From Escherichia coli (lineage in GTDB: Bacteria; Pseudomonadota; Gammaproteobacteria; Enterobacterales; Enterobacteriaceae): a stretch of 64,000 nucleotides of DNA. The notes under the pieces are model-generated. The model saw only the letters and a list, made by a program, of their open reading frames with translations, searched no databases and was not told the origin of the DNA. Positions 35,751 through 35,789 of the stretch are shown here, piece by piece. How positions within the stretch are numbered: the first letter of the stretch is position 1; every line of letters begins with the position of its first letter. The translations under genes and the position numbers were made by a program. Location of the stretch: assembly GCF_003019035.1 (NCBI RefSeq), contig NZ_CP027447.1, one strand, 5' to 3'.

Positions 35751-35789
35751 AATGAATTAAAATTCAATTTATATGGATGATTATTCATT
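35751..35789. promoter_or_regulatory. Tandem ARG boxes (ArgR operator) upstream of argI
   Basis: AATGAATTAAAATTCAAT, then 3 bp, then TATGGATGATTATTCATT; matches the TNTGAATWWWWATTCANW consensus arrangement. Confidence 0.65.

Follow-up and report, generated by a model that had tools for sequence, protein, structure and literature searches.

Results

Gene content of the argI-rraB locus

The window, by which we mean the whole 64-kb stretch of Escherichia coli DNA analyzed here, carries on its minus strand a gene for an anabolic ornithine carbamoyltransferase (OTCase) of 334 amino acids (34721..35725; NCBIfam NF009213, 753 bits), which is the regulated gene of this study. Its ATG occupies 35725..35723, and a Shine-Dalgarno sequence, AGGAGG, can be read 5 nt before it (35731..35736, minus strand). 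In the RefSeq annotation by PGAP, the gene has the generic label 'argF'; despite this label, its product is identical to K-12 ArgI at 331 of 334 residues (99%), against 293 of 334 (88%) for K-12 ArgF, and the order of genes, yjgL-argI-rraB-yjgM-yjgN-valS, is that of the K-12 argI locus. Because of this synteny and identity, the gene, judged by its sequence and setting, is argI and not argF. The divergent neighbor is rraB (35887..36303, plus strand; NCBIfam NF008393), a gene for an inhibitor of RNase E. The yjgL homologue at 32997..34649 (plus strand) encodes 550 amino acids in the window and 604 in K-12 MG1655.

An Rfam search of the argI-rraB intergenic region returned no match to an RNA family. 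Elsewhere in the window, matches at the Rfam gathering score were naRNA4 (8202..8278), a Mg riboswitch that is probably the mgtA leader (24614..24729), Ysr276 (42473..42667) and a tRNA (53640..53721).

Two ARG boxes in tandem upstream of argI

Positions 35751..35789 of the intergenic region hold a 39-bp element made of two 18-bp imperfect palindromes and a 3-bp spacer. On the plus strand, it consists of AATGAATTAAAATTCAAT (35751..35768), TTA (35769..35771) and TATGGATGATTATTCATT (35772..35789); the same stretch on the argI sense (minus) strand is AATGAATAATCATCCATA taa ATTGAATTTTAATTCATT, in which the box at 35772..35789 (AATGAATAATCATCCATA) is promoter-distal and the box at 35751..35768 (ATTGAATTTTAATTCATT) is promoter-proximal. 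The centers of the boxes lie 21 bp, or two helical turns, apart. The tandem boxes are located 26-64 nt upstream of the argI ATG, and the distal ARG box lies 98 nt from the ATG of rraB. An earlier note on this DNA had described two 18-bp palindromic ARG boxes with a 3-bp gap at 35751-35789, some 25-65 bp upstream of the argI start; both its coordinates and the 18+3+18 layout are correct, and the distance agrees with that measured from the ATG, with the refinement that the palindromes are imperfect, being self-complementary at 14 of 18 positions in the proximal box and at 12 of 18 in the distal box.

Compared with the ARG-box consensus WNTGAATWWWWATTCANW, the proximal box shows no mismatch and the distal box shows two, and elsewhere in the 64 kb just three sites have two mismatches or fewer. 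Scores were obtained with a symmetrized 18-bp position weight matrix (PWM) derived from 18 boxes of nine K-12 ArgR targets (the control regions of carA, artJ, artP, hisJ, argA, argG, argR, argD and argECBH), with argI and argF held out. Under this PWM, which is partly dependent on the consensus because its training boxes were chosen with the consensus as seed, the proximal box is the best-scoring single box within the window (20.3-20.5 bits), the distal box scores 16.15-16.45 bits, and the pair with its 3-bp spacer scores 36.65 bits, ranking first in the window with the runner-up, at 23.7 bits, 13 bits lower. A high tandem score was found with the 3-bp spacer only; with spacers of 1, 2, 4 or 5 bp, no site in the window scored above 17.9 bits. 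The training operators themselves score 23.6-32.1 bits, all below the argI pair, and the operator of argF, which was likewise held out, comes close to it with 35.6 bits.

The element is 84.6% A+T, and AT-rich intergenic DNA gives partial ARG-box matches elsewhere in the window, both of which would be expected if ordinary AT-rich promoter DNA merely happened to resemble ARG boxes. The controls speak firmly against such a coincidence. In 100 first-order Markov sequences of 64 kb, the maximum score per sequence had a mean of 11.95 bits and never exceeded 20.04 bits. In view of the base composition, dinucleotide-preserving local shuffles were also run: a score of 36.65 bits was not reached in 2000 shuffles of the 161-bp intergenic region, nor in 2000 of the 80-bp AT-rich core, for which the maximum was 20.4 bits. 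These shuffles and the conservation described below, namely identity to K-12 and retention of position and sequence in genera with diverged flanks, refute chance resemblance, to which we assign a negligible probability. The earlier note had considered the site consistent with an ArgR operator and had named a poor PWM score relative to the background as the result that would count against it; the scan yielded the opposite, with this site at the top of the window.

The top-scoring PWM lists also contain numerous weak ARG-like matches at 55455-63616, which suggests that 54000..64000 is AT-rich, possibly horizontally acquired DNA.

The putative argI promoter and its overlap with the boxes

A strict sigma-70 scan of 35600..36000 called no argI promoter, because the candidate hexamers match at 8 of 12 positions only. 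Since the hexamers are weak and escaped the strict scan, we infer the promoter from geometry and conservation. The putative -35 hexamer, TTGCAA (35789..35794, minus strand), was identified by eye and matches TTGACA at 4 of 6 positions. For the -10 region (35766..35773, minus strand), a lenient hexamer scan offered TAAATT (35771..35766), with a 17-nt spacer, or TATAAA (35773..35768), with a 15-nt spacer. TTGCAA with either of these appears to be the only plausible promoter on the argI strand, albeit a weak one. Placed on this predicted promoter, the operator extends from the final base of the -35 hexamer, which is also the first base of the distal ARG box, across the -10 region to approximately the predicted start near 35759, and the proximal ARG box overlies both the -10 region and the likely start of transcription.

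Upstream of the promoter, at approximately -45 to -54 from the predicted start, the sense strand has an A/T-rich block, AAAGATTTAT (35804..35813, minus strand), that is conserved at 0.8-0.9 in Enterobacterales and is also conserved in the argF paralogue; this block possibly serves argI as an UP element. More generally, three blocks within 35804..35853 are conserved across Enterobacterales and K-12 argF, reading AAATCTTT, GTGGAGGCA and TG(T/G)GA(N)AAT on the plus strand, the first of which is the candidate argI UP element. The third, at 35844..35852, looks like an extended -10 element and is a candidate rraB promoter.

Two other features of this upstream region were considered and dropped. A 29-codon ORF with its ATG at 35832 (35820..35921, plus strand) stands behind a strong SD-like sequence, AAGGTGGAGG, and extends out of frame over the beginning of rraB. 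Since its ATG is retained in only 19 of 64 aligned sequences from Enterobacterales, we do not regard this ORF as conserved coding sequence, and a conserved small gene is improbable here. The palindrome TGTCA-N8-TGACA (35835..35852) was dropped as a protein binding site because one of its arms is not conserved.

Comparison with K-12 and other E. coli genomes

The comparison with the K-12 argI promoter, which the earlier note had also proposed as a check, shows that all 39 operator bases in the window are the same as those of K-12 MG1655 (NC_000913.3 4478337..4478375). The distance to the ATG, the 161-bp intergenic length and the flanking genes are likewise the same, and 3 of 334 residues differ between the ArgI proteins. 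In 201 bp around the site there is a single difference, at 35814, outside the operator, where the sense strand has T in the window and C in K-12. The operator of BW25113 is also identical to that of the window at 39 of 39 bases, and a 601-bp segment around the site is found with 100% identity in many complete genomes.

Among 5426 complete E. coli genomes, the argI-rraB intergenic region is present in 5425, and the 39-mer operator is at least 99% identical in at least 4542. At this species level, argR, a gene that lies outside the 64-kb window, is likewise found in 5425 of the 5426. Operator variants occur in divergent E. coli strains: the spacer TAA becomes TAG, the last base of the proximal box changes, or ATCCA in the distal box becomes ATTCA, which is a step toward the consensus that raises the box from 16.45 to 19.12 bits. 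Natural E. coli variants spare the key positions, being confined to the spacer, the box edge or a shift toward the consensus.

Conservation in Enterobacterales

A plain-pattern scan of a collection of genomes from 100,044 species with TGAATN4ATNCAN7TGAATN4ATTCA matched at least 120 loci. In 66 of the 120 matches listed, the boxes are sense-oriented and lie 26-37 nt before the start codon of an OTCase gene; the pattern selected tandem boxes and neither the gene nor the distance, and this count speaks to the association with OTCase genes and not to the frequency of the site. The OTCases of these 66 listed loci are 70-97% identical to ArgI, and the genera represented are Escherichia, Citrobacter, Klebsiella, Enterobacter, Kosakonia, Tatumella, Rahnella, Serratia, Hafnia and Edwardsiella.

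From the matches listed, 63 distinct Enterobacterales upstream regions were aligned, and the fraction sharing the base of the window was taken as a measure of the footprint. This fraction is 0.94 for the TTGCAA hexamer, which the search pattern left free, 0.88 for all 39 positions of the operator and 0.77 for the 20 operator positions free in the pattern; it is 0.53 in the leader and 0.63 further upstream. The footprint therefore peaks at the -35 hexamer and the operator and declines in the leader, and the boxes keep both position and sequence in genera whose flanks have diverged. TATAAA (35773..35768) is conserved at 0.9 or above at its positions free in the search pattern; this conservation, at bases on which the ARG-box consensus places little constraint, is consistent with a second function as the -10 region.

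The same alignment bears on whether the site serves mainly some other AT-preferring protein, such as IHF, Fis, H-NS or Lrp, instead of ArgR. ArgR sites can be shared, in that Lrp competes with ArgR at artP (PMC6640053). At argI, however, conservation falls precisely on the ARG-box half-sites, TGAAT and ATTCA, phased at 21 bp, and the literature examined reports no such role for another protein at argI. In light of this exact coincidence with the half-sites, we consider another AT-binding protein very unlikely as the main ligand.

Relatives of the argI operator

The K-12 paralogue argF, in the CP4-6 prophage region, has a homologous control region, with the same TTGCAA -35 hexamer and TAA spacer as argI. 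Its boxes lie at -66..-28, compared with -64..-26 for argI in the window, its operator differs from that of the window by five substitutions within the 39 bp, and, unlike argI, it is flanked by IS1. The small ORF argL (b4766, 31 codons), annotated at K-12 argF, has its ATG inside the distal ARG box (AATGAAT); at argI in the window, the corresponding frame (35741..35788, minus strand) closes after 15 codons with TAG at 35743..35741. The carAB P2 operator of E. coli is also comparable, with two 18-bp boxes and a 3-bp spacer as at argI and an overlap with the promoter, which is predicted at argI, but its boxes are weaker (32.1 versus 36.65 bits) and it is preceded by a second promoter under pyrimidine control.

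The second-best tandem ARG-box-like site of the window, TTTGAATTAAAAGTCAAG gta TATGCATTTTTATTTGAT (30183..30221; 23.7 bits), is located between yjgH and the pyrLBI promoter, and K-12 has the identical sequence. At the pyrL promoter, ArgR and PurR sites that overlap have been described with ChIP-chip support (PMC4299497). Given this report, the identity with K-12 and a score above the simulated maximum, 30183..30221 is probably a genuine ArgR site that has been reported before, at the other carbamoyl phosphate-consuming gene.

Discussion

The element at 35751..35789 is, with a probability of approximately 0.96, the ArgR operator of argI, acting by promoter exclusion when arginine is abundant. 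The standard ArgR site of E. coli comprises two 18-bp boxes with a spacer of 3 bp, rarely 2 bp, for a total of 39 bp, and a single arginine-bound ArgR hexamer occupies two such boxes 3 bp apart from one face of the helix (PMC6640053, PMC6245113, PMC4381063); the ArgR motif found in vivo likewise measures 39 bp (PMC4381063). ArgR binding and repression are credited to Charlier et al. 1992, as cited in PMC6640053 and PMC6245113, and repression of argI by ArgR to Cunin et al. 1983, as cited in PMC11417348, where the element is named the 'ARG box' of argI and was mutated.

The following mechanism draws on that literature, which concerns the identical K-12 sequence, and on the promoter hexamers proposed above. 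With arginine in abundance, a single ArgR hexamer loaded with arginine would bind both 18-bp ARG boxes cooperatively, the boxes being expected on the same face of the helix because their centers are 21 bp apart. Bound ArgR and RNA polymerase would then be unable to occupy the argI promoter jointly, since the 39 bp reach from the final base of the -35 hexamer past the -10 region to roughly the transcription start, and argI would be repressed. At carAB P2, binding of ArgR and RNA polymerase has been reported to be mutually exclusive (PMC6245113), and a similar steric exclusion may operate at argI. When arginine falls, ArgR would leave and the argI promoter would fire.

A mutation obtained during adaptation to ciprofloxacin adds another aspect to this operator. 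In BW25113, the change G4468182A raised argI expression approximately 7-fold, and its authors state that it disrupts the ARG box (PMC11417348). BW25113 position 4468182 maps to 35779 of the window, inside the distal ARG box. In the held-out PWM, G to A at 35779 moves the box toward the consensus, from 16.15 to 18.16 bits; because of the direction of this change, simple loss of ArgR binding may not explain the mutant. argF naturally carries the A/T base at the position of 35779. An effect on the promoter may explain the up-regulation better than lost ArgR binding.

The same mutation invites an additional reading, compatible with repression of argI, in which the ArgR site also controls rraB through an rraB promoter element that overlaps the distal ARG box. 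According to PMC11417348, there is overlap between the ARG box and the rraB -10 box, and the mutation at 35779, which on the plus strand converts GATGAT into GATAAT, raised rraB expression approximately 6-fold. A weak promoter-like sequence, TTAAAA-16-GATTAT, can be found on the plus strand at 35757..35784, and the compact divergent arrangement of argI and rraB is kept elsewhere, with rraB 159-179 bp from argI at no fewer than 64 loci of other Enterobacterales among the matches listed. However, the candidate promoter at 35844..35852 is better conserved, lies at least 55 nt outside the operator and is the likelier promoter of rraB. Moreover, any constraint that rraB places on the operator is inseparable from that imposed by ArgR, we found no report in the literature of control of rraB by arginine or ArgR, and the adapted strain of PMC11417348 carried other mutations as well. 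Control of rraB from this site is accordingly a possibility that we hold to be improbable, at odds of about one to three, and its broader form, a conserved switch by which ArgR would also shut the rraB promoter across Enterobacterales and link arginine supply to RNase E activity, is somewhat more doubtful still.

As the ArgR operator of argI, the element is base-for-base the same as that of K-12, which makes the finding correct but ordinary: this is a textbook ArgR site that was already known. It matters little beyond correct annotation as a classical operator of the arginine regulon, and it illustrates that a real regulatory site can be recognized from raw sequence. The remaining interest resides in the operator variation, natural as well as drug-selected, linked to ciprofloxacin adaptation (PMC11417348) and in the compact, conserved divergent region shared with rraB. 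If the site did act in both directions, arginine would co-regulate an inhibitor of RNase E.
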